A stretch of DNA of 64,000 bases from contig CP158635.1 of NCBI GenBank assembly GCA_050273025.1, forward strand, positions 5,518,001 through 5,582,000. Direction: 5' to 3'. The position numbers and the translations under genes were made by a program. Within the stretch, counting starts at the first letter, position 1; the number at the start of each line of letters is the position of its first letter. The notes under the pieces are model-generated. The model worked only from the letters and a program-made list of their open reading frames with translations. It was not told where the DNA came from and made no database searches. The stretch comes from Cenococcum geophilum. Its lineage: Eukaryota. Positions 29,451-64,000 of this stretch are shown here, piece by piece.

Positions 29451-29508
29451 TCCGCAATATCCGTAATATTCGCAATATTCGCAATATCTGCAATATTTAC
29501 AATATCCG
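29451..29508 (+). repeat. 9-bp subterminal tandem repeat (tccgcaata-like) in hAT-C
   Basis: About six units: tccgcaata, tccgtaata, ttcgcaata, ttcgcaata, tctgcaata, tttacaata. Confidence 0.75.
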
Positions 29509-32460: not shown

Positions 32461-35400
32461 TGTTACGGACGCTTTAAGTACAATGTTATAACTACTTGGA
32501 GAAGAGTCAAAAGAAGCTAGTTGGTTAATATAAGTATGGTATAAGATAGAACCCGTGGAACTATATAACGAAGGATAGTAAGCAAGTTATATAATGTGCT
32601 ACGTATTAAATAAGAGGAACGAGAGGAACTTACGTACCTTATATATAACACGTATATTATATATAAGAAGGATTTTATAAAAGTACGGTTGTGTATTTAA
32701 GGACCTTTAGTCCCTACCTAGATCCTTCCTTGTAGTAATTCTTAGAATATAATTAAAGTTAATCTATTAAGCAACCACTCTACTAGTTATTATTACGTTA
32801 TTAACTTACTTATAATACCTATACACCTAGCCTATTAACAGGACCTACTGTAGTACCTACTATAAGGTTCCGTTACACAATTACTACTTAATTACGGTTT
32901 TAATAAATCGAATAATATACTACTAAAAGCAGCTACTATAACGCCATTAACGGCGGCAACTACTTTAAGGTTAGGAGGTAATACTAGTATAGCAAATACT
33001 AACTTATAACAACCTATAATAGTTAAACAACTATAAGAGATAGTTAACTAGTTAATAGAGAATAATGCGACGCTTAAATAAAGGATTAACGGGATAGGGG
33101 TAGTAAAGATTAAGTTACCTTTAATTAAGAGATTCTTAGGGGAGAGATTAAAGCTTAAAGAATTTCTTATATAAATACACTTTAAGGTTATATAAGAAGG
33201 AGTAAAACTGCTAATACCTATGGATCGAATAGTATATATAGGGCTATTCCTATCAGAAAGGGCACTTAAGTAGTTTAAATCTTACCTTATAGAAATATAA
33301 GTGAATGGAATAATAACCACTAACTAAGAGGTGCGGTTTATGTTCTTAAGTTAGGAGGGATTTATAGAGCGACTTATATAAATATTTGGAGACCTAGAGG
33401 TAGTAACTATAGTAGAAAGAAAACTCTAAAATATTACGTAACGAACCTTAGCAATTAAGTATATAACATAGTTTTAAACGCTAGCTATATAAGTTAAGTA
33501 GAATAATAAGGCGCTTATAGTATAGTATAAATAGGGACTTAAGGCTAAAGTCTAGGACGTAATTATTCTAATAGAAGATACGGATACCCTAAGAGATTTA
33601 ATAGATTAAGCGATTAAGATTAATAATTGGATTTACTAAAGGGAATAGGCTAAGAGAGGTTAGGATAGAGTTTTATAGTTGTATAAAATGCAGAGCACGC
33701 AACAACTAAAGCTAAGTTAAAAACTATGGTATGGCGTAGAGCTAATAGACCTAAATAGTACTAAAAAAACCTATAAGAGATAGAGTAAGAAACTATAGAA
33801 ACTTAGAGGTTAAGGATCTAGTAATTATAGGACTAAGGAGTAAAGGCTAAACTAGGGATCTTAGTAGTAGAAGATGTTTAGGCGGACTCTATAACAAAGT
33901 TAGTAGTTTAAAAACAGAGCTTATATAAATTATAGGAAATAAGGTTATTTTTAAGGGATTATAAAGATAGTTAGAGTTACTATATAATAAAGGGAACCAG
34001 ATTAGTAAAAGATATACACAAATAGAGGGTTAATAGTGTACTGCGAGGAATAAAAGAATGTTTAATTAGAAGTTTCGCGTTTTATTAAAATAATGCATGC
34101 CGAATTTATAAGGACGCTAAGTATAGCGTAAGCTATTAGCCATAAGAGCTAGAGTTAAAGGGACTTAGAGGAACTAAAGAGTTAGATAAAGAATAAAATT
34201 AACTCTATAAGCTAGATTAAGATATTATAGTAATATACGGATAATAATTAGTAATAATAATAATGGAGTCGGAGTACTTATTAATTAATAGTAATAAGAA
34301 AGAAAAAGGAACTAACTAGGGGTATCTAAACCTTAATAATATAATAGAAGTAGAAACTAAAACCACTACCAAACGGGGCTTAGTAACGGGTATTATAACA
34401 CCATTAGATACAGCATCCATCGCTTTATAAGATAAAAGGAGTAATATTTAAAAGGGATTAAGCAAGCAGATAACTATTAGTGCTAGCTTATTACTTAATA
34501 AAGGCAAAAGGCTAAAGGCTTAAGATTCTTAAGACGAGATAAGAGAGATCTAAAATTCTAAAAATAGGATAAGAATAGCTTAAGGACCCATAACGGATAA
34601 AAACCAATAGAGTAGAGTAGTAGCTTAGTTTAAAGACATACGAATAAGCTTAGGAGAAGAATTCCTAATAACACAAGATTTTTAAGATAAGATAAGTAAG
34701 ATTTAAGACTTTTAAAATAAGATAAGAACACTATAAACGCCTAGTAGGACTAAGGTGGGAGCTAAGCTTAAGTTAAAAGCAAGCTTAGGATTAAGGATCT
34801 TATAGAACTAAGATTTTAATATATAAATAAAAACTATTAACAAGATTAAAAAGTAAGAAGACTTTAAGGATCCACTTATAAAACGCGAAAAAAAAGAAAC
34901 TATAAAGAAATTTAGAGCTAGAATTACATTATGGCAAGAGCAGAAACTAGATAAGAAATTTAGTATACTAGGTTGTATAAGGGATAGAGCACCTATATAA
35001 AGAATTACTAATAGACCTAGAATAGGCATACCGAGAGCTAAGTGGTTTACTAAATTAGAAGAAGAAGAGGATCTAGGGATTTTAACTAGGTTTAAGGAAT
35101 GATATATAAAAGGCTGTTACGATATAGTAATAAAGAGATACTTTCTTATAGATAAGCCGTATACACTCTAAAGGTTATACTAAAGATAGTATAAACAACA
35201 ACACAATAATAAGTGGGAAGATTTCTATATATAGTTAGATGAAAAAGTTATCTAAAACCACCCGATTATAGAGAAGGCTATAACTTATATTAAAGAATCT
35301 AGAGGAGTAATTAGAGGACTAGAGAAGCGAGAGGTAAATTATAGTACCTGCGAATAAAGTTGTAACGCTTAAATTAATACAATAGAGGTTTAAACTTAAG

Positions 35401-38400
35401 GATAAAGACGAGCTAAGAGTTAACCTAAGACACTAAGTATATTACACGTTAGCGTGGATCGCATATATAGATAATATATATAATATGTATAGAGCACCTA
35501 AAGATAAGCACCAGAAATACTTAGTAAGGATATATTAGGCACCGGATAAAGTAAAGTATTAAAACGCTAAGTATATGCATAGTTGGCACCTAGTAGAAGT
35601 TTAAGGATAAGGGGGCTTAACACTTTAATTAGGAAAATTCCTTACAGAAGAATGCCTAGATGGATAATAGTGGTAGGAATGTCCTAAGAATACGTGTCTA
35701 TAGTATATTAAAGACAAAAAGCAAACTAAATATTGGCTTAAGTTAAACTAAGTATAAACAGGATCTAGCAGCTAATAGTTAGGAAAAGTAGAGGCCTATA
35801 GGACTAGAAGGAGCTAATAGTAGAGCCTTAGACCCTTAAAGGAATTTAAAAATAATACCTAAATTTAAGAATTAAGTGGCAAGATTAGCAGTTTAAAGTA
35901 TTAGTAGATAGTGGAGTAATAAGGAACTATATCTTACTAGTAGCAGTTAAAAGAATAGGGTTACTATATAGGAAAAAGGAGTATCCTTACCTATTAGTGA
36001 TAATTTTAGGAGATCCGATAGCCTATAAAGGAGGCATTATTAATCTTAAAACAGGACCTATTTAGCTAACCATTAAAGGAAAATAAGTTAAGATATCTTT
36101 TAATATATTACTATTAGGAAATAATAAGGCAGTATTAGGAATGCCTTAGTTATAAAAATATAATCTAAAGATTAATTAGATTATAGGTTAGGTTAATATT
36201 AGAGATACTTAACGCCGTAAAATATAATAATAAACTAAGTTAGTATAGTACTAAGTGGGAGCGACCTATAAAGAAATAGAGAAAGGGCTAAGCTATATAC
36301 TAAAGAGATACTATAAATATAGTAAAAAGTTATAGTTACTAGAAAGTGAAAAGTTATTAAAATACGTAGTATAAAACTATAAGATAGAGTTAAAAGTAGG
36401 AATAAGTCTAAGGTTCTTTCTAACCTATAAGCTTACTAAAGAGGAAGGTAGAGCATTAAAAGAGTTTATCTAGGAAAATCTATAAAAGGGATATATTAGA
36501 CTATTATAATTATTAGCGGGTTATCTAGTACTATTTGTACTAAAGAAAAACGGTAAGCTAAGGCTATATATCGACTATAGACAGTTAAACAGTATTACTA
36601 GAAAGGATAGGTATCCTTTACCCTTAATTAGCGAAATTTAAGATAGGATAGGTAATGTATAAATCTTTATAAAGATAGATCTAAGATAGGTATACCATTA
36701 AATTAGAATTAAGAAAGGCAACGAATAGAAAGCAGTCTTTAGGTTAAAAGAAGGACTATATAAACTATTAGTTATGCAATTTAGGCTTATAAATGCACTA
36801 GTAACGTTCTAGAAGCAAATTAATAATATATTAGGAGAATACTTAGATAAATTTGTTATAGTATACCTTAACGATATTATTATCTACTTAATAACTAAGG
36901 AAGAATATAGAGAATACGTTAAATAGATCTTAAAGAGACTATAAAAAGAATATATGCTAGTAGCAATTAAGAAATGCAAGTTCTTTACTAAGAAGACCGA
37001 TTTTATTAGATTTATTATTAAACTAGGTAAATTAAGTATAGACCTAAAGAAAATTAAAGCTATAGTTAATTGGTAAGAACTAGAGAATATTATATAGTTA
37101 AGATTGTTCCTAGGGTTTTGCAATTACTATAGGAGGTTTATAGCATAATGGTTAAAGAATATTAAGCCGTTTACTTAATTAATGAAGAAAGAGGAACTAT
37201 AGATATAGGGAGATAAATAAAAAAAGTTATTTATAGAACTTAAAGAGTTGTTTACCTAGGAACCAATCCTTAAAATCTATTAACTAGGACTAGAGACGGT
37301 TGTAGAAATAAATATATTAGACTTTATACTAGGAGTATACTTTATATAGAAATATAAAAATGGATGGCATTTAGTAGTATATTATAGTTAGAAGATAACA
37401 CTACCAGAGTTAAACTATAATATTTATAATAAGGAGTTATTAGGTATAGTTACAGTACTAAAGAAATAGAGAGCATTCTTGTAAGGTATAAAAAAAACTA
37501 TTTATAGTTAAGATAGATTATAAAAACCTAATAGGATTCCTAATAATAAAGGAGCTTAACTAAAGATAGGTTAGATAGGCAGAAACACTTATAGATTACT
37601 ATTTTAAGATTTAGTATACTAAGGGTACAAATAATACGCGAGTAGACGCTTTAAGTAGAAAAGCTAAACTATAGAATAACGAAAAGCTATTAGGGGCTTT
37701 ACTGCAAAAAGATATAGATAGGTTAATTAGGTACAATTATCTAAAAATCGCAGCTACTTAGGAAAATAAATTAGAGAAAGTCTACAAAATACTAGAAAGC
37801 TTTTAGGTATAAAGAATTCTAAAAGTATAACTAAAAGATCTATAGATGGATATATACGAAAACTAAGAAGTGAAGTATATTCTAAGAAGTATAGTAGAAT
37901 ACTTTATAGAGGAGTTCTATAAAGGGGTAACTTAAGGACATAACGGAGCTATAGGCTTAGTATTGAGACTCTAAAAGGAGTATATTATTAATGGAATCTA
38001 AAGGATAGCTAGGAAGGTTACTAAAGAATATTTAGATTACTAAAGAAATAAACTAATAAGGCATAAGCTATATGGAGGGCTATAACCTATTAAAATACTA
38101 GAGAGACTATGGGAGGTTATATTATAGAACTTTATTATTAAGTTACTAAAGTTAAAAGATCTTATTACTGGATAAGATTATAACGCGATCTTAGTAATAG
38201 TAGATAAGCTTACGAAGTGGGGATACTTCATAGCATGTATAGAAGAAATATTAGTATAAAATATCGCTAGAATCTATATTAAAGAAGTATTTATAAAATA
38301 TAAAGTATTAAGTAAGATTATATTAGATAGAGATCTAAGATTTATAGTAGCATTTTAGGAGGTATTCTTAGCGGAATAAGGAGTTAGAGCAGCAACTTCT

Positions 38401-40305
38401 ATTATATATTATCCGCAGACAGATAGTTAAACGGAAAGATTAAATTAGACACTAGAGTAGTATCTAAGATACTATATTAATTACGTATAGAATAATTAGG
38501 TATTGTTATTACTAGTTATATAGTTTATATATAATATAACACTATAAGAAGGAATAGGTATATTACCATTTAAGGCAAATTATGGATACGAGCTAAGAAT
38601 ATTATTATTGCTATATTAAGTAAAGAAAATAAGTAGTAGAGCTAAGTAAAGAATAGAGACTTTAATAAATCTTTATATAGACCTTATAGAAATAGCAAAA
38701 ACAGTATAGCAAAAAATAAAAAAGTATTATAATGCTAAGAGATCTAAGGGACTAGATCTTAAGGAGGGAGATAAAGTATAGCTACTATATAAAAATTTTA
38801 AGAGTTAATGACTAAGTAAGAAGTTAGACTATATTAAACTAGGACCTTTTAAAATTACTTAAAGAATTTTACCGGTTATATTTAAGTTAAACCTACCAGC
38901 CAAAATAAAGATCTACCCTATATAGTATATTACAATGCTAAAGCTAGTATATAGAAATATTAAGCTACCGGTTTATAAAGCAGATATGTATAAAGAATAA
39001 GAAGAGGACGAATAGTAGGTTTTAAAGATTATTAGTTATAAGGATATTAACGATAAAATATAGTATAAGGTAAAGTAAATAGGCTATAATAAGACTACTT
39101 AAGAGCCACTATAGAATTTAAAGAACGCTATAGGAAAGGTATAGGAGTATTAGAAGAAAATAGGTTAGGTAATATTAATAAAGAAAAATCACCAAAGAAC
39201 GCGTTACCTAAGGGGGACTTAGGAAGAGCGACTATTAAACTACTCGGAGTTATTTCCTTTAAGGGAGGAGAGTTAGTTCTCTTATTACTAAGTTCCTGTA
39301 GACCTTATTTTATAAGTTTCCACTCCTTAAAACAAACTTTCTTACGTACTTTCTTAAGACGAACTAGCTAAGTAGACGTCGCGATGCGAGTATCTAGGGC
39401 CTTCTATTCTACATCTTAAGAACGCTTAAGCTTAGCAAGGGCCTACGCTAGGTTACCGTCTAACTTTATAGCGATAGTTTAAACACAAGACCCTATAACA
39501 AATTACTTAGGGAACTTAAAGACTATTAAGAGTTATAGGATGCGTATATTTAGCGTTAAAAGTAAAATAAACGTCATAAGAGAAACGAATATTTGCTTTA
39601 GTATACTCTAAGTAAGAGGATAGTTGCCGAGATAAAGGACTCGCTAGCGCAATATAAACTAACCCCTTTCTTATATAACGAGAATATAGAGATAGTATAA
39701 TTTTACTAAGCGATAATATGGCAGCAATAGTGCGAGTACAACATTGCGCGTATAAAGAAGAAGAAGCTTTAGGTATAATAAGTAACAATATTAACCAAAT
39801 TAATTAGACGGACATTACACCTCTAGTAGATAACTTAAAGATATTAGGAATCTTTAAGGATAAAGATAAAGAGGAGGGAGATAGTATTACGGACGCTTTA
39901 AGTACAATATTATAACTACTTAGAGAAGAGTTAGAAGAAGCTAGTTAGTTAATATAAGTACGGTCTAGGATGGAACCCGTAGAACTATATAATAAAGGAT
40001 AGTAAGTAAGTTATATAATATGCTACGTATTAAATAAGAGGAATAAGAGGAACTTATATACCTTATATATAACACGTATATTATATATAAGAAGGATTTT
40101 ATAGAAGTATGGTTGTGTATTTAAGGACCCTTAATCCCTACCTAGATAGTTCCTTCCTTATAGTAATTCTTAGAATATAATTAGAGTTAATCTATTAGGC
40201 AACTACTCCACTAGTTATTATTACGTTGTTAACTTACTTATAATACCTACACACTTAGCCTATTAATAGGACCCACCGTAATACCTGCTACAAGGTTCCG
40301 TTATA
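32461..40305 (+). mobile_element. Full-length Ty3/Gypsy chromovirus (element E, 7845 bp), RIP-degenerate
   Basis: LTRs 32461..32877 and 39885..40305; TSD GTAAA (32456-32460, 40306-40310); PPT gaggagggagatag. Gag, long spacer, PR (VLVDSG ~35900), RT (LYIDYRQLN ~36565, VYLNDIIIY ~36860), RNase H, IN, chromodomain (~39000-39150). Confidence 0.96.
39180..39788 (-). pseudogene. Antisense accessory ORF of Gypsy E: RIP'd Zn2Cys6-like motif, predicted 55-bp intron (39493..39547), coiled-coil-like C-terminus
   Basis: Six Tyr codons (TAT/TAC, the RIP products of TGT/TGC) spaced Y-x2-Y-x6-Y-x13-Y-x2-Y-x8-Y at 39576..39686; same spacing at 57371..57481. Confidence 0.7.
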
Positions 40306-45831: not shown

Positions 45832-48800
45832 TGTAACGGAACCTTATAGCAAGTACTACGGTGGGTTCGTTATTGGGCTAGGTATATAGGTAAAGCAAAT
45901 TAAGTCAACAACGTAATAATAACTGGTGGAGTGGTTGCCTAACAGATTAACTCCAATTATATTCTAAGAATTACTACGAGAAAGGAACTATCTAGGTAGG
46001 GACTAAGGGTCCTTAAATACACAACCGTACTCCTAAGAAAGTTGTTGCTCTATCTGCTCTGTCTGCTCTGTTCGCTCTATTATAGATCTCGCAGATTATA
46101 CAGATTATACAGATTATATCACGTGACCTTGCTTACCATTCCTCGTCATATGGTTCCACGGGTTCCAACCTAGACCGTGCCTGTATTAACTAACTAGCTT
46201 CTTCCGACTCCTCTCCAAGTAGTCGTAACATCGTACTTAAAGCGTCCGTAACACCATCTCCCTCCTCTCCATCTTCGTCCTCGAAGATACCTAGCATCTC
46301 CAGGTCGTATACTAGAGGTGTGCGTAAAGATTCATCAAAGTCTCCATTCTTTGCTTGGCTTTGCTACTTGTCTTCTTTGCTTAACGTGGCGATAATGATG
46401 TTCTTAGCTTATATCCATAATTCGCCTTAAATGGTGACGTGCCTATTCCTTCTTATGGTGTTGCATTGTATATAAACTATGTAACTGGTAATAGTAATAC
46501 CTAATTGTTCTGTGCGTAATTGATATAGTGCCTTAGATACTGCTCTAGTGTCTAGTTTAATCTTTTCGTTTAACTGTCTGTCTGCGGATAATATGCGGTG
46601 GAAGTTACTGCTTGAACCCCTTGCTCTGCTAAGAATACTTCCTAGAATACTACTATAAATCTTAGATCTCTGTCCGATATAATCTTGCTTAGTGCTCTAT
46701 ATCTTGCGAACACTTCTTTAACATAGATTCTAGCGACATCTTCCGCTAAGATTTCCTCTATGCATGCTATAAAGTATCCCTACTTTGTTAGCTTATCTAC
46801 TATTACTAAGATTATGTTATAATCTTATCCGGTAATAGGGTCTCTTAATTTTAGCAACTTAATAATAAAGTCCCACAATATAACTTCCTATGGTCTCTCT
46901 GGTATTTTAATAGGTTATAGCCCTCTATATAGCTTATACCTCGTTAATTTATTTCTTTAGCAATTTAGATATTCCTTTATGACTTATCTTGCTAGTCCCT
47001 AGATTCTATTAATAATGTACTCTTCTTATAGTCTTAACACTAAGCCCGTAGCTCCGTTATGTCCTTAAGTTAGTCCCTTATAAAATGACTTAATAAACTC
47101 CTTTGCAATAGACCTTGGTACGTATATTACTTCTTAGTTTTCGTACTACTCTAAGTCTGGATCCTCTGCCTGTGCTTCTTAGATCTTTTATAACCATTTA
47201 CTCTCTAGTAATTTATGGGTCTAATTAGTTTCTCTTATTACTGCGATTTTCGGATAGTTGTATCTAATTAATCCGTCTGTATCTTTTCGCAGTAAAGCCC
47301 CTAATGGCTTTTTGTTATTCTATAGTTTAGCTTTTCTACTTAGAGCATCTGCTCGTGCATTGTCTGTACCCTTGGTATGCTAAATCTTAAAATAGTATTC
47401 TATAAGCATCTCTGCCCATCTAACTTATCTTTAATTAAGTTCTTTTGTTGTTAGGAACCCCATTAGGTTCTTATAATCCGTTTTAACTATAAATAGTTTC
47501 TCTATGCCTTGTAAGAATGCTCTCTATTCCTAAAGTACTATAACTATACCTAATAACTCCTTGTTATAGATGTTATAGTTTAGTTCTGGTGGTATTATCT
47601 TCCGACTATAGTATGCCACTAGGTGCTATCCATCCTTATATTTCTATAGGAAGCACGCCCCTAGTGTAAAGTCTAATACATCCGTTTCGACCACTATCTC
47701 TAACTTTAGTTAGTAGATTTTGAGGATTAGTTCTTAAGTGAATAACTCCTTAACCTCCTTAAATAGTTTCCTCTGTTCTTTTCTCTATACCCAAGGTTCT
47801 TCTTTCTTTATTAATCTTATAAATAGCTTGATGTCCTTTAACTATTGAGCTATAAACCTTCTATAGTAATTACAAAACCCTAGAAATAACCTTAACTATA
47901 TTATATTCTCTAGTTCTTACTAATTTACTATAGCCTCGATCTTCTTTGGATCTATACTAAGTTAGCCTAGTTTAATAATAAATCCGACGAAATTGGTCTT
48001 CCTAGTGAAGAACTCGCATTTCTTAATTGCTACTGGTATCTGTTCTTTTTATAGTCTCTCTAAAACCTATTTAATGTGTTTTCCGTGCTCTTCCTTATTT
48101 ATTAAGTAGATAATAATATCGTTAAGGTATGCTATAATAAACTTATCCAAGTATTTTCTTAATATATTATTAATACGCTTCTAGAACGTTGCTAGTACGT
48201 TTATAAGCCCGAATTGTATAACTAATGGCTTATATAGTCCTTCCTTTGACCTAAAAGCTGCCTTCTATTTATTGCCTTCCTTAATTCTAATCTAATGGTA
48301 CGCCCATCTTAGATCTATCTTTGTAAAGATTTATGCATTACCAATCCTATCTTAGATTTCGCTAATTAAGGGTAAAGGATACCTATCCTTTCTAGTGATA
48401 CTATTTAACTGTCTATAGTTAATGTATAGCCTAAGTTTTCCATTTTTCTTTAGGACGAATAGTACTGGATAACCCGCTAATAACTGTGATAGTCTAATAT
48501 ATCCCTTTCGTAAGTTCTCCTAGATAAACTCTTTAAGTGCTCTTCCTTCCTCTTTGGTAAGCTTATAGATTGGAAAGAACCTTAGACTTATTCCTGGTTC
48601 TAATTCTATTTTATAGTCCTATGCTGTATATTTTAACAGCTTTTCACTTTCTGGTAACTATAGTTTCTTACTGTACTTGTGGTATCTCCTTAGTACATAA
48701 CTTAGTCCTTTTTCTGTTTCCTTATAGGTCGCTCCTACTTAGTACTATACTAACTTGGCTTATTATTGTATCTTATAGCGTTAAGTATCTCTAATATCGA

Positions 48801-51800
48801 CCTAACCTGTAATCTAATCGATTTTTGGATTGTATTTCTGTAACTAAGGCATTCCTAACACTGCTTTATTATTCCCTAATAGTAATATATTAAAAGACAT
48901 TTTAACTAGTCTTCCTTTAATGGTTAGCTGAATAGGTCCTATTTTAAGATTAATAATGCCTCCTTTATAGGCTATTGGATCTCCTAAAATCGTTACTAAT
49001 AGGTAAGGGTGTTCCTTTTGTCTGTATAGTAACCCTATTCTTTTAACTGCTATTAGCGAGATATAGTTTCTTATTACTCCACTATCTATTAATGCCTTAA
49101 ACTACTGATCTTACCATTTAACTCGTAAATTTAGGTATTGTCCTTAAATTCCTTTAAGGGTCTAAGGCTCTACTACTGGTTCCCTCTGGTCCCGTGGGCC
49201 TTTACTTTTCCTAACTATTAGCTGCTTGATCCTATTTATACTTAGTCCAACTTAGGCCAATACTTAGTTCGCTTTTTGTCTTTAATATACTATAGATAGG
49301 TATTTTCTGGATATTCCTACTATTATCGTCCATCTAGGTATTCTTCCGTAAGAAATCTTCCTAATTAAAGTATTAAGTCTCCCTGTTCTTAAACTTCTAC
49401 TAAATGCCAACTATATATATACTTAGCGTTTTGGTATTTCGCCTTATCCGTTATCTAATACATTCTTATTAAATACTTTTAATTTTTATTCTTTGGTGCT
49501 CTATATATATTATACGTATTATCCACGCATGCTATCTATAATAGTATATAATAAGCTTAATGTTTTAGGTTAACTCTTAGCTTGTCTTTATTTTTAAGTT
49601 TAAACCTTTCTTGTGTTAATTTAAGCGTCGCGACTTTGTTTATAGGTACTAAGATTTACCTCTTACTTCTCTAGTCCTCTAATTACTCCTTTAGATCCTT
49701 TAACGTTATAATTAAGGCTCCCTTAATATAAGTTATAGCCTTCTCTATAATTAGGTGGTTTTAAATAACTTTTTTATCTAACTACATGTAGAAATCTTCC
49801 TACTTATTATTATGCCTTTACCTATACCACTTTTAGTACAGTTACTTAAGTATATACGGTTGGTCCGTAAGGAAGTATCTTTTTATTACTGCGTCGTAAC
49901 AACCTTTAGTGTGTTGTTCCTTAAACCTAGTTAGAATCCCTAGATCCTCTTCTTGTTCCAGTTTAGTAAGCCACTTGGCCCTTAGTATGCCTATTTTCGG
50001 CCTATTAGTAATTCTTTGTACTAGCGCTCTGTCCCTTATACGTCCCAATATGCTAGATCTTTTATTTAGTTTCTGTTCTTGCTATAAGGTAATTCTCGCT
50101 CTAAATTCCTCTATAGTTTCTTTTCTTTTGCGTCTTGCGAGTAGATCCTTAAAGTCTTTATGCTTTTTAATTATAGTATTAAATTTTTAATCTTTAGGCT
50201 GAATACTGCGTTCCCCTGGTAAGTCTTCTGGGTCTATATATTGGTCTCCTAATCTAACTGCTGTTTATATTATAGATTCTCTAATCTATAACGAAGCTCC
50301 TTACCTCTTGCCTATGGGTGTCCTTATTTATACTCTAAAATCTTGGTCCCTTAGATTCTTTAATCCTAAGCTTACTTCTAACTTAAGCTTAGCTCCCGCC
50401 TTAGTCCAATTAGGCGTCCGTAGTGTTCTTATCTTGTCTTAAGAGTCTTAAATCTCACTTATCTCGTCTTAAGAGTCTTATGCCTGTGGGAAACTCTATC
50501 CTAAGCTTATTTGTATATTTCTGAACTAAGCTACTACCCTACTCTATTGGTTTTTGTCCGTTGTGGGTCCTTAGGTGTGCCTTATTTTGTCTTAAGAATC
50601 TTAGTTATCTCTTATCTCGTCTTAAGAATCTTAAGCCTTTGGCCTTTTGCCTTTATTAAGTGGTAAGCTAGCACTAGCAGTCGTCTGCTTACTTAATTAT
50701 CTTTAGATATTACTTTTTCCGTCTTATAAAGCGATGGATACCGTATCTAATAGTGTTATAGTGCCCGTTACTAAACCTTACTCTATAGCGGTTTCGGTCT
50801 CTACTTTTATCGCGTTATTAAGGTTTAGATACCCCTAGTTAGCTCCCTTACTATCCTTATCGCTATTAATTAATAAGTACTCTAACTCTATTATTATTGT
50901 TACTAATTTTTGTCTATATATTACTGTAATATCTTAATCCAGCTTATAGAGTTAATCTTATTCTTTATCTAACTCTTAAGTCCCTTTAAGTTTTCTTAAC
51001 TCTGGTTCTTGTGGCTAATAGCTTACGCTATACTTAGCGTCTTTATAAATTTGGTATGCGTTATTATAACAAAACGCGAAACTTCTAATTAAACACTCTT
51101 TTGTTCCTTGTAGTATACTATTATCCCTCTATACGTATATATCTTCTACTATTAGTCTAGTTCCCTTTATTATATAGTAACTTTAACTATCTTTATAATC
51201 CCTTACGAAATAACCTTATTTCCTATAATTTATATAAGCTCTATCTCTAAACTACTAACTCTATTATAGAGTCCGCCTAAACGTCTTCTACTAATAAGAT
51301 TCCTGGTTTGGCCTATGCTCCTTAGTCCTATAATTACTAGATCCTTAACCTCTAGGTTTCTATAGTTTCTTATTTTATCTCTTATAGGTTTCTTTAGTAC
51401 CGCTTAGGTCTATTGGCTCTGCGCCATACCATAGTTTTTAACTTGGCTTTTATTGTTGCGTATTCTACGCCTTATATAACTATAGAACTCTGTCCTAACC
51501 CTTTTTAGCCTATTCCCTTTAGAAGATCCTATTGTTAATCTTAATCGCCTAATTAATTAATTCCCTTAGGGTGTCCGCATTTTCTATCAGAATAATTGCG
51601 TCCTAGACTTTAGCCTTAAGTCCCTATTTATACTGTGCTATAAGCGCCCTATTATTCCATTCGACCTATATAGTAAGTGTTTAAAACTATGTCATATACT
51701 TAATTACTAAAGTTCGCTGTATTAGGTTTTAAAGCTTTTTCTTTACTGTTGTCGTTGCTTCTGGGTCCCCGAATATCTATATTAATTATTCCGCGAATCC

Positions 51801-52704
51801 TGCCTAGCTAGAAAACACAAATTGTACCTCTTAATTAGTAGTAGTTATTCCGTTAGTCTATATTTCCATTAAGTAGGGTTTAAACTATTTAAGTACCCGT
51901 CCTATTAAGAATAGTCCTGCGTAGGCTATCTGATCTATTATTATGGCTAACTTAGCCCCTTCTTGTATAACTTTAAAATGTATTTATATAAGAAATCCTT
52001 TAAGCTTTAATCTCTTTCCTAAGAATCGTTTAATTAAAGGTAACTTAACCTTTACTACTCTAATTCCATTAAGTCTTTCTTTAAGTGTTTAGTTGTTCTC
52101 GTTTAACTTATTAATAATTTCCTATAACTGCCCGACCGTAACTGGTTGTAAGTTAGTATCTTATATACTTGTATCTCTACTTGTCCTTAAAGTGGTTGCT
52201 TTTATTAACGGCGTTATAGTGGCTGCTTTTGGTAGCATGTTGTTTAACTTCTATATTTATTACTGTAACTAGGTAGTAATTATATAACGGAACCTTGTAG
52301 CAAGTACTACGGTGGGTTCGTTATTGGGCTAGGTATATAGGTAAAGTAAATTAAGTTAATAACGTAATAATAACTAGTGGAGTGGTTGCCCAATAGATTA
52401 ACTCTAATTGTATTCTAAGAATTACTACGAGGAAGGAACTATCTAGGTAGGGACTGAGGGTCCTTAAATATACAACCGTACTCCTAAGAAAGTTATTACT
52501 CTATTTGCTCTATCTACTCTATTCGCTCTGTTATAGATCTTGCAGATCATACAGATTATATAGATCACATCACGTGACCTTGCTTACTATTCCTCGTTAT
52601 ATGGTTCCACGGGTTCTAACTTAGACCGTGCCTGTATTAACCAACTAGCTTCTTCCGACTCCTCTCCAAGTAGTTATAACATTGTACTTAAAGCGTCCGT
52701 AACA
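45832..52704 (-). mobile_element. Gypsy element G (E family, inverted, 6873 bp) with an internal deletion of IN C-terminus, chromodomain and antisense ORF
   Basis: 422-bp LTRs at 45832..46253 and 52283..52704; TSD TAAAT (45827-45831, 52705-52709). Collinear with E, but the sequence jumps from the E 38680 equivalent to the E 39820 equivalent at ~46320. Confidence 0.95.
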
Positions 52705-54279
52705 TAAATCGCGTCGCTATAAACCCTATAGTAAGCTATAGCCTCTTTAGGTCCCCACCTAAGCCTAATAGTATTATTTACTTAACTTTATTATAGATCT
52801 CCTAAAGTCCAAGACTCCTACTAGCGTAGAGTATAACTCCGTCCTTATTCTTATAGACTATTTTATAAAACTAGTGCGCTACTATCTAGTGTATAAGATA
52901 ATTAATGCTATACAACTCGTAGAACTCTTATTTAGAGTCTTTATATAAATAGGACCTCTAAATAATATCGTCTCTAATAGGGGTAGTATATTTATAAGCA
53001 AGTACTAGAGCACTATATACTACTATCTCCGCGTTTAATATAAACTTAGCACCGTATTTTACCCGTAAATAGATAGTTAGACAGAGTATTAGAACTAGGA
53101 GCTTAAGGTATACCTATATATATTTATAAACTGGGAATAGTCTAACTAGGCCTTCCTACTTAAAGAAGTAGCCTTTACCTATAACTCTAAGGTCTATACC
53201 ATAATAAAGCGTTCCCTTATTAAGCTTGCCTATAGCTAGCTACTAAACGTCCCGGATAGAGTCCTAGATAGTATTTAAGACGCCTAATAAGGTAAGGAGG
53301 GGTCTAAGTTAATAAATATTAAACTTATAAAGACGTATTTATAACGCCTACGCCTTATATATAAGGTAGCGGCGGCGTTAATAATACGCCTAACAGCTTT
53401 AGGCAAAATACTATAATCGTTACTATTTGGCTAAGCATTTCGCCGTTAGTAAACGAGTCCTACTCTTCTCTAAGAATATTTACACAAAACGTCCCTATAA
53501 AAAGCTTAACTATAAGTTTATAGGACCGTTTTAGATCCTAGAGTATATAGGGCAGTAAGTATATAAGCTAGAGCTTCTACCTACTATAGCATGGCTCTAC
53601 CTAGTCTTTTATATCTCCTTACTAGAGCCTTATAGGTTATGCCTTAGGTTTTAACCCCTAGCAATAAAAGAGCTTAAGGAAGGCAGCTAGGAAGTAAAAG
53701 CAATTGTTGCCTACTAGGATTGTGCTAGATAACCATAGTACCTTATTAAATAGCTAGGATGGCTAAATAAGTATAATAAATGGAAATACGAGATAGAACT
53801 TAAGAATTATTAATAATTATTAGATAAGTACTATAAGCGGGACACCCTAGCCTTATAGCCGAAGCGCAGGCGAAAAGTAAGCGCCGCTATTAAAATATAA
53901 CTTATATTAAAGTAAAATAGAGGATATTCTAAGGAATTAAAGAATAAGTAATAATTGCTATAAGAACTGCGGCGTATATATAGGGTAAAGTTTTAATTTA
54001 TTAATATTCTATATAAGCTACACTCTAATATAACCTAGTAATGCTAGTGACTTATAAGTGAGGCTACGGCGTATACTAGCAATAAAGCTTAATTTAGAAA
54101 GCACCCTTTTTAGACCTAGTTTATTACTCTATACTAGCTAAGCAGATTACTTATATATTAGAGAATAGGCCCGTTTATAACCGGGGTCTATTTAACTAGG
54201 GTTTACCACCTATTAGTAACCCGCTAGTAGTAACCTATATTAATAACTTACACTATTCTATATATATACTATATAGATA

Positions 54280-54510: not shown

Positions 54511-56700
54511 TAGTGACCTACCTATATAAGTAAGCTTTTAGAATATTTCTGGTCTACTAAATTTAGGTAATAGTATTAAGCTCTACTAGCTCTACCTATT
54601 AAATAAACTAATTAGGATTTTCTATACCAGGTATATAAAATCGCTACTAGCTCGGTTAAATATAGGGGAGTTTTAGCAAGGCAAATCTAACTAATTAAAT
54701 AACTTTAACCGCTAGTTAAAGTTCCTTAATATCTTCGCGCCGCGTAGGTATACTACCTATCTCTCTATACACAAAATTAAAACGCTCTTTTCCCTCCAAA
54801 TTTTTTCCTTACTAAGGTTTTTTATAGGGTTTTATTAAGGCTTAAGTATATAAAGGATTGGGGACAACCCTTTTTAAAGGGGGGGGCATTATTAGGTAAA
54901 ACCTAAGTAGATAGTTATATAGCTGTAAGGTATAGGCGACCCTAGGGTAACCTAGGGGTGACTCGCCTATAAGGTATGTGCGCTATATATATCTAGGGAA
55001 AACCCTTCCTACCTCGCATATAGACTCCTCCTTTTCCCTTAAGGATTCGTCTCTGTCTATACAATATACCTATTATTCTATTATTAGACTCCCTATCTAT
55101 ATCCTTACCTTACAGTTACTCTATAGTTTAAGTATCCGCAGTTATATTATACTATTATTAACCCTTTAATAACTTATTTAGTGACTTATAGGTGTTTTCT
55201 ATTTATATTTAGGGCGTCTTATCTAAAGCCGCTATAGTTAGGATTCTCTACTAAGATAGGTCCCTAGCCGCATTAGTACTACATTATAGATATCCTATAC
55301 CCTATTTTACTATTAGTTAGATAGATACTTCTCCTACTAGGGTAGGTACCCTAGCTCTCTTCTATTATACAACTATCTACCTACTATTATTTATCCTGCT
55401 TATCTCCTTCTCTATATATATATTTCCCTATAATATAGCTAAAATCTAATATAGATAGGCTTATTTTTCCCTAGTAGCTTCTAAGTATACCTAGTAGGTT
55501 TTATATACTATCTTCTACTATACTTTATATTCTTTACTGCAATTTACGTATCTAACTCTCTTATCCTTAGTATTATAGGTATTAGTATACTCTCCGCACC
55601 TCGCATCCTCCTATATACACTTTAGGTATATCCCTACTATAAATATCTAAAGCATTATTAGACTTAGACTCTATAGTAGTATAATCGGGCTTTATATTAA
55701 AGACTATCTATAACTACTCCCTTATAGGCTAATATTGCTTATATCTCTTAGGTTAGTAGGCTAATTATTAAGGTGCCGCGCGTTTTAACCCTTTAGAACT
55801 CTAGTAATTCCCCTATATATATTATATATTCTTTATTAAGCTATATAACCTTTATAATCCTCTAAATAAGCTATATATTTATAGTGCTTTACTTACTTTT
55901 TCTACTTATATATTAAGGGGTACTCCTATAACTTTAACTAGGTAATTTTAGTAAAGGATCTTATACTTAGGGGTGTCTCTTTAATCCTTTACCTACTAGT
56001 TAGGGAGTATAACCTCTATATCTCCGCTATATAGAACTCTTACTACTATTACCCTTAGTATATATGCTTTAATTAATATAAGAATCTATTTTAGTTCCGC
56101 GCCTACTACCTTTAGTATTCTAACCCTAACTATAGCTCTAACTAGTACTACGCTAGGTATACGCTAGAGGGTTACTAGTTAGGCGCTTATAATAATATTA
56201 GCCTATAATAGCTTTACTGCCTATACTGCTAGTATTCCCTATAATTCTATAGCGTCCTTAATACGTCTAAGGCTATTCTATACTGCATTTTAGTTTCTAT
56301 TATACTTTATCTAAAGCTCCTAAGCAATTTAGCCTACTTATTAAGCTACCCGCACTACCCCTATACGTAAATATTTATTACCTCCCTTTTTTAAGATCTT
56401 TCTTAATATCTTTTAGAAGGTTTATTAGTTTCTACTATCTCTAGTCGTTGCCCTTTAGTTGTTGTAATTATATCGCCCCCTATTAGGTTTGTTGTAGTAT
56501 TGTAGTTTTCTATACAGCGTCTATCCTTTAAGTCTGCTACGATCCTCCTATATCGCGTAGGCCTTTTAGCTATACTATATATTAGTTCTAGGGAATAATA
56601 TGCTGTGGGTTTAATTGGAGATGGTTATTTTTTAATTAGAGGATTAATGGGCGTGTTTTAGTGCTATAGCAGCTTTTTATCTAATAATACATTTCTGTTT

Positions 56701-58258
56701 ATCTACTCTATATAGTATATTGTAATACTAGAGCTAGTATATAGGAATATTAAGCTACTAGTCTATAAGATAGATATATATAGAGGGCAAGAAGAAGATA
56801 AACAGTAGGTTTTAAAGATTATTAATTATAAGGGTATAGATAATAAAATATAGTATAAAGTAAAGCAAATAGGCTATAATAAGACTACCTAAGAGCTACT
56901 AGAGAACCTAAAATATGCTATAAGAAAGGTATAGGAGTATTAGAAGAAAATGGGTTAAGTAATATTAATAAAAAAGGATTATTAAAGAACGAGTTACTTA
57001 ACGGGGACCTAAAAGAATTAGCTACTAAGGTATTTAGAGTTATTTCCCTCTCTATTAGAATAGAATCCCTTTTTTATCCTCTTCCAGTTTATAAAGGCCT
57101 TATTTAGTAAGACGCCACTCCTTTAAATAACCCGTCTTATAACCCTTTTTAAGACAGAGTAGCTAAGTATGACTAGCTAATTAAGCGTTAAATACTTGCC
57201 GCTCTTTAGCATAAATACGCTCCCTATTATCTTAAAGTTTTTATACCTTAGTAAGAGCTAAGGTAAGTTTGCCCTTAAGATAAAAGGCCTTAGATTAAAT
57301 ATAAGACTCTATAATAGATTAGATAAGGTACTAAACGCCTATAAAATATATTAGAAACAGATTAAACATTATAAAACGATTGTTTATTTAATTTTATATA
57401 CTTAGTATATAAAGAAGGTTGGTAACTAAACGGAGCCGCGATTATAATATATTTTAGCACTTTCTCTATATAATGAGAATAGGACGGTATAAATTTACTA
57501 AGTAATAGTATAGTAGTTACCAGCCAATTATAATAATTAGATAATAAGGATCTAATAAAAGGTATTATAAATTAAGAAGGTTATTAAATTAAAGAGGGAA
57601 ATACTATACCTCTAATTAATAATTTAGAGATAGGAGATGTCTTTAAGGATAGAGATAAAAAGGAGGGAGATGGTATTACAGACCTTATATTAGTAGTAGT
57701 AGAATTATTAAGAAGAGATATAAATAGGTTAGTTAAGATAATATAGGAGGCATTAGAACTAATTAAGCTATAGGATAAAGAGTAGCTAAGTTATATAATA
57801 AGTTATAAGATTATAACTTAGTATGTAGGTATATAAGTATATAAGTATATATAACGTACTAACGTATTAATATACTACTAGTAAGTACATTTCCTAGGAG
57901 TTAGATTATATATTTAAAGGACTATCCCTTAACCCGTCAAGGCCCTTAGCATAAGTGGTCCGTGCGGAACATTGTTCTTAATAAAGTCAAAGGCTTCGTA
58001 TTTCTAAGAACGGCTGCTTAATTTAACTGGTTTGATTAGTAGGCTCTTATCGATACCGTAAGGACCAATTTTAACGGGTTAAGGGATAGTCTCTACCTAG
58101 ATAGTTCTATTTTTTATAGTAAATCTTAAAATATAATTAGAGTTAATCTATTAGGCAACCACTCTGCTAGTTATATTGACGTTATTAACTTCTTATTTAC
58201 CTATATACTTAGCCTATTATTAAGTCTATTGTAGTATTTCCTGTAAGACTTTATTACG
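56701..58258 (+). mobile_element. 3' fragment of a divergent E-family Gypsy (element H): IN end, chromodomain, antisense ORF, PPT, 3' LTR ~57674..58258
   Basis: 56701 onward aligns with E from 38911; PPT aggagggagatgg; the LTR 3' half matches the E LTR (ctacctagatagttc...gagttaatctattaggcaaccactc). Confidence 0.85.
57925..58086. mobile_element. MITE-like insertion inside the LTR of element H
   Basis: Inverted ends gactatcccttaacccgtcaa / ttaacgggttaagggatagtc; segment absent from the E-family LTRs; non-coding. Confidence 0.75.
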
Positions 58259-58938: not shown

Positions 58939-61893
58939 CGGCCTTAGCAATAATTAAATAATTCTAATTACCGACCTAATTCTAATTAATAATATTAATT
59001 ATATAATTATACCTTAATTACCTAATATAAAAGTTAGTGAGACTTTTAATATAGAAGAGTGTCTTAGAAGTTTTACTAAAATACTTAATACTGTGTATCT
59101 ACCTAATTCCCGTATTAGGAAGTCGGCAATAGCTTTTTAGAGTTTATTTATACTCTAAATCCTTATCTCCTGCCTTATTATTACCTAAATCATTATCCTA
59201 CGCCTAATTAAGCCCTTTTTTAAATAGCCTTTATATTAAGTGCGATACTTACTATTATTAAGCCTTCTAATTTAACTGCCTTACAAATCTAGCTCTTTAA
59301 GCACTCTATTTATTCTACTACTATTACTTTAAGGCTTAAACGCTTCTATAAGATTATATAACGTACGCCTAAAAGGATTAAACTAGATTTAGCTAATATA
59401 GTTAGTATAGAGAAAATATTAATAGCTATGCGAAAGAGACGTAAATAGCGGCTTTATCAAGATGGTTTAAGCCACTAGCTAAGAGAAGTATTAGCGATTA
59501 GTTATAGAGACGTTTCCTATAAAATTAAAACTAAATATTAGTAATGTTAAGAATATTAAAATAGTGCTTATATTAATAAAGCGCTTAAATTTATTATTAA
59601 AAGACTGTTATTTAAGTTCCTAAATATACTTATAGCATAAATATAAGTTTTTAATAAGATCTAGGTCTTTCTACTATATCGTCTTACTATTAATAGGCTT
59701 AAATTTATACTCCTTCTACTATAGCTTTTATACGGCATTAATCGCTCGTTTAATCGTCCCTTTTAAGCACTGCTCTAAATACTACTAGTTATTATTAAAG
59801 TACTTTCTTTAATAAGTAGGGTTAAGGAGTAGCGCCGCTACGTACGTAAGAGTCTTATTAGTTAGCTAGTAGTGCTTATTAAAGGTAAACCCTATTGTTA
59901 ATAGAGACGCTAAGAGGGTCTAATTAGCGGCGTATTCTTCCTACTTATTTTTAACGTAATTAATAAGGAAATCTATACTTTAAAGAACCTTATTAAGAGT
60001 CGTTTTATTACCTTTTAAAGCCTCTATTATATCTTTAAAGACTATAGTATATTAATTATTTTATAGATAGTCTCCCATTTATTAGAATTAAGGTTATTCT
60101 TTAATATAAGTTTATAATTCTTATTAATAAAGACTTAAATTTAGTTTTTAAGGTTAATTGCCGACTCTAGTATAACAAGCCACGAATTCTATCTAGTATC
60201 GTTATTATATTTAAGTATCTTCTTTACGAGCTTAAAAAAGGCCTAATAGCACTTAGTTAAATATCTTAACTAGACGGTAATATTATATATCTTTCTAAGC
60301 GCTCTAATCTCTTGCTATTTAGCCTGCGTAGCCTTATTCTAATTATACTTATATTCTAAATAAATATTAAGGCGTTGCTTTTTATACTAGAGTTTCTCTA
60401 CTACCTAAATTGCAACCTTAACGGCTTCTTTATCTTTATATAATAGAAAGGCTTATATAGCGAGGTTAATAATATAGCTAATATATTAAATTCTGTACTA
60501 AACGGCGTCCTATTTTAAAGCGGTTTTAAATAAACTAATAGAGTTTATTATTACTACCGTAATTATTACCTTTACATAGTAGAGTTAGTAGAGAATTAAG
60601 TAAAGGTAAAGGCGCTTAATTAAAGCTTACTGGTAATATAACTAATATAACTCTTCTTAATCTTATACTTACTAATTATCTTAAGCAGTACCTCTACTTA
60701 CTGCTTACTACCGTATTCCTTTTTATATTCCCTTAAAGCTAGTATAGCCTTTAATATTTAGCCGAATTTATTTATAAAATAAATAGTAATAGCTTAGTAG
60801 GCTTTTTTATTTAAAGACGTCTAGTAGTTAATAGTAAAGTGTAGCTTTAATAGGGCCTTTTTAAGCTTTTCTTTAAGTATCTCTTTATATATAACGAATG
60901 TCTTACTAATAAAAAGAGGCACTAATCTACGTAATTTATAAAGAAGGCCTCCTTTATTAGTAAGCGTATAGTTATAAACGTATAAAAAGGCCCTAAACTC
61001 TAGATATTTAAAAATTATATAAGGAAGAGTTTAGGTAATAATAAGGAGTAAAGGGCGTTAAAAAAAGGCGTGTTTATTAATAAGTTCTTTAAGGATCTTT
61101 ATAGCCTTTAGGTCTAGTTCTTTAACCTATTACTTTACCTATTTCTTAAATAGAGCTCTAAGTATAGCTTTTGCCTTAATATTAACTTCTAAGTGCTTTA
61201 ATTTAATATAAATTCCGTGCTGGCCTTTTAAATAACGTTAAAAATAAGTAGTATTGCTAAAGGCTTTTAGGATACATCTTTTATAATAGAAGAGTTCTTA
61301 GTTTAAATTCCTTTATTTTAGTAAGCCCTTAGGAGGCTTCTTAAGGGTATAGAACTAGAGCTCCTTATCCTTGCGTAACTCCTTACACTTTTCTTCTAAT
61401 ATACTAACTTAGTAGTAAGAGTTATTGCGCGTAAGCGTCACGTTATTAAACTCGCGTGAATTATACTTACTAAGGTTAGAACCCGCGTTTTCTTCTTTTT
61501 AATATTAGCGCTTTTAGATATAGGTGCGATTAAGGGGTAAAAAAGGTATCGTTGGTAGGTTTTAGGGGGGTAGTAGTAGTAATGGAGGTTGGCGTTAATA
61601 ATAAGGAACAATAGAATATAGTGCTATACTTAAGTACCTTAACGGGAGCGCGTACGGCTTTTATTTATATATATTCTAGTGCCTTTTTTATATTTTAAAA
61701 GTGCCGCGGTATATCTACTAATAATCGCCAAATTAACTAAACTACTGCTTACTACTTCCTCCCCTTCTTGCCCTAGGTAATTATATAATTATAATTATAT
61801 AATATAATTAGAACCTTAATTCCGATTATATTAGTTATAATTATATGATAATTATAATCAATGTAGCTAATCAACTGATTATTGCCACCGCTG
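58939..61893 (-). mobile_element. hAT DNA transposon (hAT-D, 2955 bp), related to hAT-A, uninterrupted but RIP'd
   Basis: TIRs CGGCCTTAGCAATAAT / ATTATTGCCACCGCTG; 8-bp TSD TTGACATT (58931-58938) / TCGACATT (61894-61901); transposase collinear with hAT-A (e.g. 59390-59480 vs 13300-13400). Confidence 0.9.
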
Positions 61894-62101
61894 TCGACAT
61901 TAGTTTCACTGAGGGTTTATAGGCATAATAGAACTTGATCCGGTTGCGAACATATGGCTCCGTTTTGAAATACACACCTTTGGCTGCTTTCATAAACAAC
62001 AAAAAAAAAGCCATCAATTTATCGAAAATTTTGCATAACGACAATAAGAGGTACAAAATTTCACAAAGAAATATGAAGATCGTGTTTTTACCAACAAAAT
62101 A

Positions 62102-64000
62102 CTAGGCGTATAGTATCCCAATTTGATTTCTTTCATCTGCATTACTCACCCAGGTAGTATGACAGAGACTCCCATCTGACTGCTCAATCCAGTCTTCGCT
62201 TCCGACACAGCGACGACACCAGAGCACACCATTAGGATCATACTGCTTCTTTACTTTTCTTAGCCGCGGATAATTGGCGCCGAAGAACGAGTACTGCCAG
62301 TCTGGCTCGTACGAGTCGCACTAGAACTGTTAGCCTTGGAATAGGATTGACTCCTTCCATTGATGACACTGAAAGTTGTATGAAGGGAATCCTCATCACA
62401 GCGAAGGCCAAAGCCTTAGGAGCGGACGTACTTCATTAAAATAGGCTCCTCCATCCGGCGCTAGCTGCTTGAGCGCATAGGTTTTATTGAATGTGATATC
62501 ATTGTAAACATTCTCAATTAGTGTTTGTGGCATTCCGTCAACCCATCTCTCCCAAATTACAAAATGAACAACCGCGTCACGCCATGCAGGATTCATGCCA
62601 ATGTCAAGGCCGCGATTGCCGCTGTTGGCTACCAGGTGACCAAGGAGGAGGGTGTTAAAGAAAACTCCCTGTCAAATTATTATTAGAATGCGGAATGAGA
62701 TATTATAAGGTAAAAGGAGACGAACGGCTCCACTAAAGAAGCCACGAGTGCCACTTGAGACCAACAGAAGAATAATGGGGGAATCATGACATACACTTGG
62801 TTTCAAAATATTTGGCGACGGCCCAATCTTTTCAAATGTTTTCGCAACAAGAGCCATATCAACCAGAGCGCGCTCTGGTAGTAATCGTGACCCGTAAGCC
62901 GACCCGCCAGTAGCTACCGGTTCGTTACTAGCCGTGGTAAGATATGCGTCATAGAAGTTAGATGCAGTATCGACTGAGGCTTTGTAGATAAAATAACTCG
63001 AGGCATTGCTCAGCCTTGCTGCAATTGGGGCAAATAGAGCCTCTGCAGTTCCATTTGGTTTATCATAAAGATAAAATGACCACAGCAATGACAGTGTTGG
63101 AGCTAGTGGAGGCCCTACCATGTAATAGTAACCTTGCATGCCACCGTTTTTAAGGCGGGGCAACTCGGAGTGGATGTATGCCATCAGTTCCCAGTATTCA
63201 GATGATATGTTAGAGTTCTTTGATCCTACCTGGAGGTTGTGAATGGCGGATTTTGGAGAGGGATATGCTCTCATCACTGCTTCGATGACCACACCATAAG
63301 TTCCCCCGCCGCCACCGCGGATCGCAAAAAATAGCTCGATATGCGAGCAAGCATTTGCAGTGACGACATCCCCATTAGGTGTTATGATGGTTGCTTCGAG
63401 AAGGTTGTCTGCTCCCATGCCATAGGTACTGGATAGATAACCGTGGCCGCCTCCAGTAAACCAACCCATGATGCCCACATCCTTAAAAATGTAAGTTAAG
63501 TTTGCAACTGGAACAAATTGATTATGCAGGCCTACTGGATTTCCACCTACGACAACAACTGCATTGTGCTTTGCCATCTCAGTAAGTACAGTAAAACCTG
63601 TTTCGCCGGCAGAGATGATAGCAGCCATATGTGTGCCACTGATTAGGCAAGATTTTGACTGGAATTTCTTATTAAATGTGACTCCTCGGAAGTTATGCAT
63701 CCATATCCTATAGAGGGTATCAGTGTATGGCCTTTCGAACAAACTATATGCTCGGTTATTGAGTATCTAGGGGAGTGCTTACGATAAACTGCCATAGCCC
63801 GTACTCCTACTGACGCTTAGTCCAACTATTCTGGTATTTTAGAAAGTTTAGAGTTTACCTTCCAGGATAAGAATGGCCAGTGTTCTTAACTACCACTCTG
63901 ACACTCTTCTGATCCGCCCATTTCAGCGCCGTGCTGACATGGTCTGCTTCAGTCGCATTCACCACGTACACAGGATACTCTCCAATAGTGCATCCTCTAC
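62102..64000 (-). CDS. FAD-linked oxidoreductase, berberine bridge enzyme-like (FAD_binding_4 + BBE), multi-exon, 5' end outside the window
   Basis: RVVVKNTGHSYPG (covalent-FAD His motif), STGYGSL, GWFTGGGHG..SSTYGMGADN, LFFAIRGGGGGTYGVV, MNPAWR, GAYFNE, last exon FFGANYPRL..VKKQYDP..C..CVGSEDW; several GT-AG introns; first in-frame stop TAG at 62102-62104. Confidence 0.93.

Follow-up and report, generated by a model that had tools for sequence, protein, structure and literature searches.

The window examined here is a stretch of 64,000 nucleotides of Cenococcum geophilum (contig positions 5518001-5582000) from a 178-Mb host assembly of 7 contigs. It is AT-rich, and RIP indices are strong across nearly all of it. 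Within it lie a full-length Ty3/Gypsy chromodomain element, E, and the 3' piece of a second such element, H (Table 1). The LTRs of E have TG..CA ends, are 90% identical and are accompanied by a target-site duplication; the 3' end of E is RIP-changed. In six-frame translation the coding order is gag, protease, RT, RNase H, integrase and then chromodomain, of which the protease, RNase H, integrase core and chromodomain were assigned by their characteristic motifs. Among related copies, RVT_1 (36.8 bits) and SH3_Tf2-1 (40.4 bits) scored above the Pfam cut-off, and an integrase piece searched against Pfam gave no match.

Of its two LTRs, H retains the 3' one only. By BLASTN, positions 38911-39374 of E and 56701-57169 of H are 77% identical, and the chromodomain region of H lies at a transversion distance of 0.02-0.05 from E-type groups, with a pol-frame dN/dS of 0.17 (E x H) over the H pol end. 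The insert within the H LTR is a repeat in its own right, matched at 83-100% by all 40 of the scored sequences among 233 candidates in the host genome. A further copy of the E family, F, is missing about 1.14 kb, comprising the chromodomain and the entire antisense gene described below. An amplified gene-less derivative of this kind was considered and rejected, the F junction being present in 1 of 40 scored matches, which is F itself.

Table 1. Features of the window, with positions counted from its first letter.
Feature	Position	Strand	Particulars
E-family LTR	9523-9945		89% identical to the E LTRs
Different RIP-mutated repeat, two copies	13201-15096; 59287-61214		69% alike; the second resembles a DNA-transposon remnant beginning near 58560
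Non-RIP island	~29500-32000
Element E, full-length	32461..40305	+	LTRs ~420 bp; target-site duplication GTAAA
Antisense gene of E	39128..39776	-	197 codons; start 39776, stop 39130
Intron of the E gene	39547-39493	-	55 nt
Ligand codons of E	39686, 39677, 39656, 39614, 39605, 39578	-
Copy F of the E family	45834-52705	-	LTRs 92% identical
Element H, 3' piece	~56700-58250	+	RIP-mutated Ty3/Gypsy chromodomain element
H pol end, chromodomain region	56701..56920	+	RIP-mutated, E-type allele (BLASTN, transversion distance)
Antisense accessory gene of H	56918..57565	-	dead copy; start-equivalent ATA 57565, stop-equivalent TAG 56920-56918
H exon 2	56918..57308	-	long Ala/Leu/Lys/Arg/Glu helix, then Ser/Pro-rich tail overlapping the pol tail
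H intron remnant (of 55 nt)	57309..57349	-	CTAAT 57322, acceptor TAG 57311-57309
H exon 1	57350..57565	-	basic N-terminus, hydrophobic stretch, six-Cys cluster
C-x2-C-x6-C-x13-C-x2-C-x8-C motif of H	57371..57481	-	all six codons TAT
H 3' LTR, purine-rich tract ahead	57674..58250	+	similarity to the E and F LTRs
MITE-like insert in the H LTR	57920..58091	.	172 bp; 21-nt terminal inverted repeats
Non-RIP stretch, intron-containing	62000-64000	-	GC 0.44-0.46; by its motifs presumably a FAD-linked oxidoreductase gene

The gene of E consists of a 229-nt exon 1 and a 362-nt exon 2. In H the donor has been lost to a private 21-nt deletion at ~57350, and a 4-nt loss at ~57075 shifts the frame of exon 2. 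An earlier note, made from the letters of the window, had placed a CTAAT branch site and a TAG acceptor at matching positions of the two copies. Both signals are present in H, but E-type copies read GTAAY and not CTAAY at the branch column. The similar tail that it had described (LLCLKKGYK..KEWRLTK*GLYKLEE) is found in H at ~57160-57080. Across 174 copies, the start column holds ATG in 28 and ATA in 144, and the stop column TAG in 153 and TAA in 10; the donor G is retained in 27, and the acceptor is mostly TAG. The modal lengths of exon 1 (223, 226, 229 or 232 nt) and of exon 2 (362 to 401 nt) are in frame in the 12 groups with at least two copies, the exception being the four-copy L012 group with four different exon-2 lengths; these commonest lengths show no fixed frame-breaking indel. 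One RNA run (X1), about 12% of it read, gave 43 reads, all less than 90% alike, with no splice joints among those distant reads. The H region is almost certainly what remains of a real former two-exon gene of about 200 codons.

Some groups (L126, L131, L188 and related metagenome loci) have an intron of 127-130 nt instead of 55. Read-through from exon 1 into this longer intron yields a recurrent short peptide in five metagenome proteins (P0014, P0029, P0101, P0115, P0138), possibly a retained-intron product or a micro-exon. In the metagenome protein P0003 the six-Cys segment occurs as a tandem pair, and P0151, similar in length and score, may do so as well.

Ancestral cysteines and selection on the antisense frame

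The motif attributed to H in the earlier note does lie on the minus strand, with its first and last Tyr at 57481 and 57371, and its Y-x2-Y-x6-Y-x13-Y-x2-Y-x8-Y spacing is indeed common to E and H although the residues between them differ (18 of 37 motif residues are shared). At the nucleotide level 66 of 111 bases are the same, and the remainder divides into 24 transitions and 21 transversions. With that many transversions, the difference between E and H is not due to RIP alone. When all six frames of the window were searched with a loose stop-free pattern, [CY]x2[CY]x6[CY]x5-16[CY]x2[CY]x6-9[CY], there were exactly two matches, one in E (39686) and one in H (57481). Local shuffling, repeated 300 times, produced the loose pattern 0.17 times on average and at least once in 15% of the trials, and never the exact x13 and x8 spacing.

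Evidence for the original identity of the six tyrosines comes from natural copies. Searches of the host genome returned about 2000-3100 candidates each, 40-150 of which were scored, and 80 metagenome loci were added; after removal of duplicates and loci that were too short, 202 copies were aligned, 74 of the 80 metagenome loci among them. Over the six ligand columns of these copies there are 508 TGY, 698 TAY and 6 other codons, so that 1206 of 1212 cells are TGY or TAY; the sampling favours such retention, since Cys-bearing protein queries brought in about 130 of the 202. For 30 H-like copies picked by DNA alone, TGY or TAY fills 175 of 180 cells, only 10 of these being TGY, and ligands 2 and 3 are never Cys. 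All six cysteines are kept in 4 of 265 metagenome proteins (P0086, P0121, P0207 and P0211), always with spacers x13 and x8, and P0211 and P0207 are of the Lys type of H (see below). No group deviates from the purine/pyrimidine pattern at any ligand, as is true of 34 of the 76 exon-1 codons. On this evidence the six Tyr of H are RIP products of Cys.

Among 2758 host-genome candidates, the 150 that were scored included no un-mutated copy, the best identity being 57%. Word-based protein searches limited to 162-2000 aa and to 409-2000 aa, the latter excluding the expected size of 200 aa, gave no intact un-RIPed relative. A HMMER search gave 161 matches (best 150 listed) and a profile search 699 (best 120 listed); those viewed among the listed matches are RIP-mutated exon-1 ORFs, and no listed name goes beyond 'hypothetical protein'. 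A search of viral contigs for relatives of the motif, of the integrase tail and of RT was negative.

RIP makes transitions only, and for this reason selection was measured on transversions. Over 103 well-aligned codons, dN/dS is 0.29 (95% bootstrap 0.18-0.45) between the E and H groups (300 pairs, with 25 of the 71 E-group copies sampled), 0.29 (0.20-0.39) across all 11 groups of at least 4 copies and 0.40 (0.25-0.67) for E x H of the window, values in which RIP still blurs the assignment of silent sites and for which the bootstrap resamples codons, not lineages. Broken down by part, the E x H groups give 0.28 in the exon-1 core, 0.52 in the first 20 codons of exon 2 and 0.17 in its middle, and the exon-2 tail is without clear constraint (1.16 and 0.79). 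The control, the pol frame over the integrase tail and chromodomain, gives 0.31-0.36, with at least 0.95 in the other two sense frames; these figures supersede a control of 0.6-0.7, whose interval spanned 1 and which came from a ragged alignment end.

Transversion columns that separate groups (13 groups, 148 of the 174 copies) tell the same story when scored by codon position 1/2/3. In exon 1 the counts are 7/3/19 for the core (p=0.0003) and 10/5/16 for the N-terminus, and in exon 2 they are 6/5/16 at the start, 7/4/16 in the middle and 12/18/24 in the tail. The coding pattern is absent from the intron (5/7/4) and from the upstream region (10/6/9). Private transversions were intended as a neutral control and failed as such, being third-position rich too (10/7/20 in the exon-1 core); the probable reason is that many copies each represent a separate sublineage that was once active. 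The earlier note had proposed purifying selection on a protein before RIP, and a dN/dS near 1 or frame-breaking indels fixed in the subfamilies would have spoken against it. With dN/dS well below 1 in the antisense frame, commonest exon lengths in frame and six Tyr derived from Cys, the proposal is supported, and the substitution pattern indicates that the antisense protein was under purifying selection while the element family was active.

Since antisense and pol wobble positions coincide in exon 1, it had to be asked whether the conservation comes from the sense strand, with pol reading past the chromodomain into the LTR and the antisense motif as a by-product. Stops for which there is no natural RIP precursor are indeed fewest in the pol frame (9 of 11 groups have 1-2; the two remaining sense frames have 9-15 and 3-5), intron lengths of 55, 61, 127 and 130 nt and upstream lengths of 108 and 114 nt differ by multiples of 3, and one copy (L122:457-795, minus strand) is stop-free in this frame for 113 residues. 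However, the null for these stop counts is badly calibrated, another sense frame showing 3-5 stops where 11 were expected, and pol-frame dN/dS is 0.93, 1.11 and 2.74 in the exon-1 core, exon-2 start and exon-2 middle, where the antisense frame gives the low values above. Pol read-through as the sole explanation of the motif is contradicted by this absence of amino-acid constraint, and we regard it as very improbable. An open but unconstrained pol tail that runs over the antisense gene into the 3' LTR (window 39100-39884, plus strand) is a separate matter, and an unlikely one in our estimate.

H as a mosaic of two subfamilies

The gene belongs to the family as a whole and is present in essentially all sampled members. 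A further 11 copies were chosen by their integrase DNA; every one continues across the gene region, and 8 of them have the strict motif. Where a metagenome locus offers more than 1200 nt of room, an integrase-chromodomain is encoded on the opposite strand in 68 of 69 cases, at a distance of 560-820 nt. Placed between pol and the 3' LTR and running against gag-pol, the gene is present in most copies, and it is conserved like the other genes of the element (dN/dS close to that of pol).

The earlier note had called H a divergent second copy. Its antisense allele does differ from that of E, but age and divergence alone do not account for H. The chromodomain and exon-2 tail of H stand at 0.02-0.06 transversions per site from E-type groups, whereas its exon 1 stands at 0.11-0.31 from them and at 0.04-0.06 from three H-type groups, most members of which have a different tail. 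Judged from these distances, H is a recombinant of an E-type chromodomain and a different antisense allele. Silent transversion divergence between E and H amounts to 0.31 in exon 1 against 0.05-0.07 in pol, and old alleles of the antisense gene have therefore been joined onto a common pol. This joining was likely brought about by template switching between co-packaged RNAs. As a locus H is modest, one dead copy of a gene, but its mosaic structure suggests that subfamilies exchange the gene as a module.

A putative zinc-cluster protein and its possible role

The sequence of the protein invites comparison with Gal4-type regulators. PROSITE gives a range of 5-12 for the middle spacer of Gal4-type Zn(II)2Cys6 clusters, and we take the equivalent of Gal4 Lys18 to lie four residues after the second Cys of the cluster, a place held in such proteins by a base-contacting Lys, His or Asn. 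Like the Gal4-type proteins (Pfam PF00172) as described in the passages drawn on here, the element protein has six Cys near the N-terminus in a C-x2-C-x6-C..C-x2-C..C arrangement, followed by a long helix (PMC8079791, PMC6265462). Both halves, C-x2-C-x6-C and C-x2-C-x6-8-C, are present. However, the middle spacer is 13 in the four natural six-Cys proteins and in the DNA copies, outside the usual range, and the last spacer is 8. The middle spacer of the Gal4 type is quoted as x6 (PMC8079791), and extra helices in AlcR mean that longer ones exist in the family (PMC6265462). The element protein also differs in its length of about 200 residues, in having no middle regulatory region and in being encoded by a retrotransposon. 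Pfam Zn_clus scores of natural copies with six or nearly six Cys, 13.1 (P0211), 11.1 (P0207) and 9.4 bits (P0016), are below the 21-bit cut-off, these copies still being changed by RIP, and Pfam gave nothing relevant for the window and own-genome copies.

The Lys18-equivalent residue divides the family. The three H-type groups have Lys there, in most of their copies, and H itself has Val; the other eight groups have Gly, and six of them owe some or all of their copies to a search with a Gly-type pattern. Among the 265 metagenome proteins Gly (148) is followed by Lys (90) and Arg (11). In the sections of the structural source used here, the base-contacting side chain is Lys18 in Gal4 and Asn299 in Pho7, and the CGG triplet is also read by main-chain atoms (PMC6265462), so that Gly at this position does not exclude DNA binding.

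Structure prediction added little. AlphaFold models had a mean pLDDT of 50.5 and 48.5, too low for a fold search, and a PDB profile search gave no match. These failures, like those of Zn_clus, weigh little because all queries were RIP-damaged and no intact relative was found. In the ESM Atlas there was no usable match for L043, and P0016 matched unnamed Ascomycota clusters only (0.78-0.85), at most a lead. Exon 2 encodes an Ala/Leu/Lys/Arg/Glu-rich helix and then a Ser/Pro-rich tail; from this composition the helix is likely a coiled coil, and a crude heptad count in P0016 is mildly supportive. The metal ligands of the motif are putative, as the earlier note had them. That the six Cys would bind zinc is very probable, and a Gal4-type binuclear fold is, on balance, the expectation we lean towards. 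We stop short of classing the protein as Zn2Cys6; its mode of action is probably that of such proteins or that of a zinc-and-helix adaptor.

The best explanation, which we hold with about even confidence, takes H as the dead, recombinant 3' remnant of a family that carried a selected antisense gene for a trans-acting, zinc-binding, dimeric regulator. In active ancestors this additional gene would have filled the space between pol and the 3' LTR, facing the other way, and its transcription may have started from an antisense promoter within or beside that LTR. The antisense transcript would have been spliced, and the backward intron would survive reverse transcription because it is not removed from the genomic RNA. 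The predicted protein, a zinc-binding module with two Zn on six Cys as in Gal4 and then a dimerising helix, would act in trans in the nucleus, where it may bind LTR DNA or chromatin and so tune transcription or resist silencing. That the protein regulated transcription of its own element, or shielded the element from silencing, by binding the LTR or chromatin seems to us an evenly balanced proposition, and direct binding to DNA a tentative one. It is doubtful, though worth stating, that the lineage encodes its own Gal4-like factor binding its LTR, with Lys-type (H) and Gly-type (E) alleles swapped together with the adjacent LTR onto a shared pol. If true, such swapping of allele and LTR would amount to subfamily-specific pairs of regulator and promoter; in the boldest form an extension of the pol C-terminus into the 3' LTR, open and unconstrained, would also cover the whole of the gene.

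The same gene and zinc module could act through protein contacts instead, as a silencing suppressor, a cofactor of nuclear import or integration, or a particle component. This we consider plausible without thinking it probable. The Gly at the Lys18 equivalent in E-type copies and in the majority of metagenome proteins, the long middle spacer and the missed Pfam cut-off point in this direction, as do the excess of silent divergence over pol and the swapping between subfamilies, as in a host-facing accessory gene; roles like those of retroviral accessory genes have been suggested for such ORFs in the part of the review used here (PMC7264820). Set against these are the order of cluster then helix and the first Cys spacing, which fit Gal4-type regulators, and the main-chain reading of CGG noted above, which leaves DNA binding possible with Gly (PMC6265462). 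The Cys spacing and the intron also resemble a host gene, as would be expected of a captured fragment of a host Zn2Cys6 transcription factor carried as a passenger. Passenger status is refuted by a dN/dS below 1: at least 11 groups have kept the gene in frame and show purifying selection on it, it is present in all 11 integrase-picked copies, and the inspected sequence matches are all RIP-mutated copies of the same gene, with no host regulator among them. This leaves the passenger reading with hardly any probability, though the gene may have come from the host long ago. Equally improbable is that the region acted as antisense RNA, through silencing or self-limiting dsRNA, with the frame incidental. 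Such a role has been raised for antisense transcripts of LTR elements in the passages drawn on (PMC7264820), but an RNA-only role does not predict selection at the amino-acid level and in-frame indels in both exons. An antisense-RNA role could coexist with that of the protein.

Returning to the regulator, a selected six-Cys cluster with a dimer-type helix turns the gene into a concrete, testable guess, an element-encoded nuclear regulator comparable to retroviral accessory factors. It also carries a warning for annotation, as such ORFs can be miscounted as host zinc-cluster genes. An antisense gene at this position is already known from Botrytis (Boty) and from plant elements; new here are the E-versus-H selection test, the mosaic origin of H, the Lys/Gly split and the sense-frame test. 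Our literature search did not find a six-Cys cluster in the antisense gene of fungal elements; the original brtn description and supplements lay outside that search and may contain the domain. The terms zinc, antisense and transcription factor are absent from PMC3248453. The brtn gene of Boty-like elements reportedly goes back to Zhao et al. 2011. Boty is a fungal Gypsy element with a chromodomain, and its brtn is described, in the portions of the sources used, as an extra antisense gene of unknown function between pol and the 3' LTR (PMC7264820, PMC8365987, PMC4227169). Antisense accessory genes of LTR retrotransposons in general are there said to have no known function (PMC7264820). The E/H-family gene resembles brtn in its place between pol and the 3' LTR, in being antisense to gag-pol and in belonging to a chromodomain Gypsy element; compared by description only, and as far as those portions go, which name no protein domain for brtn, what sets it apart is its intron, its six-Cys cluster and the swapping of its alleles. 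In plants, the aORF-3R of Grande, RIRE2, Retand and PvRetro13 are kept in most copies and conserved like the element proteins, and some of their products are nuclear and have been proposed as accessory regulators (PMC7264820). With these the E/H-family gene shares place and orientation and is likened to them by position, whereas the passages on them drawn on here describe no cysteine cluster of the kind that the fungal gene encodes (PMC7264820).
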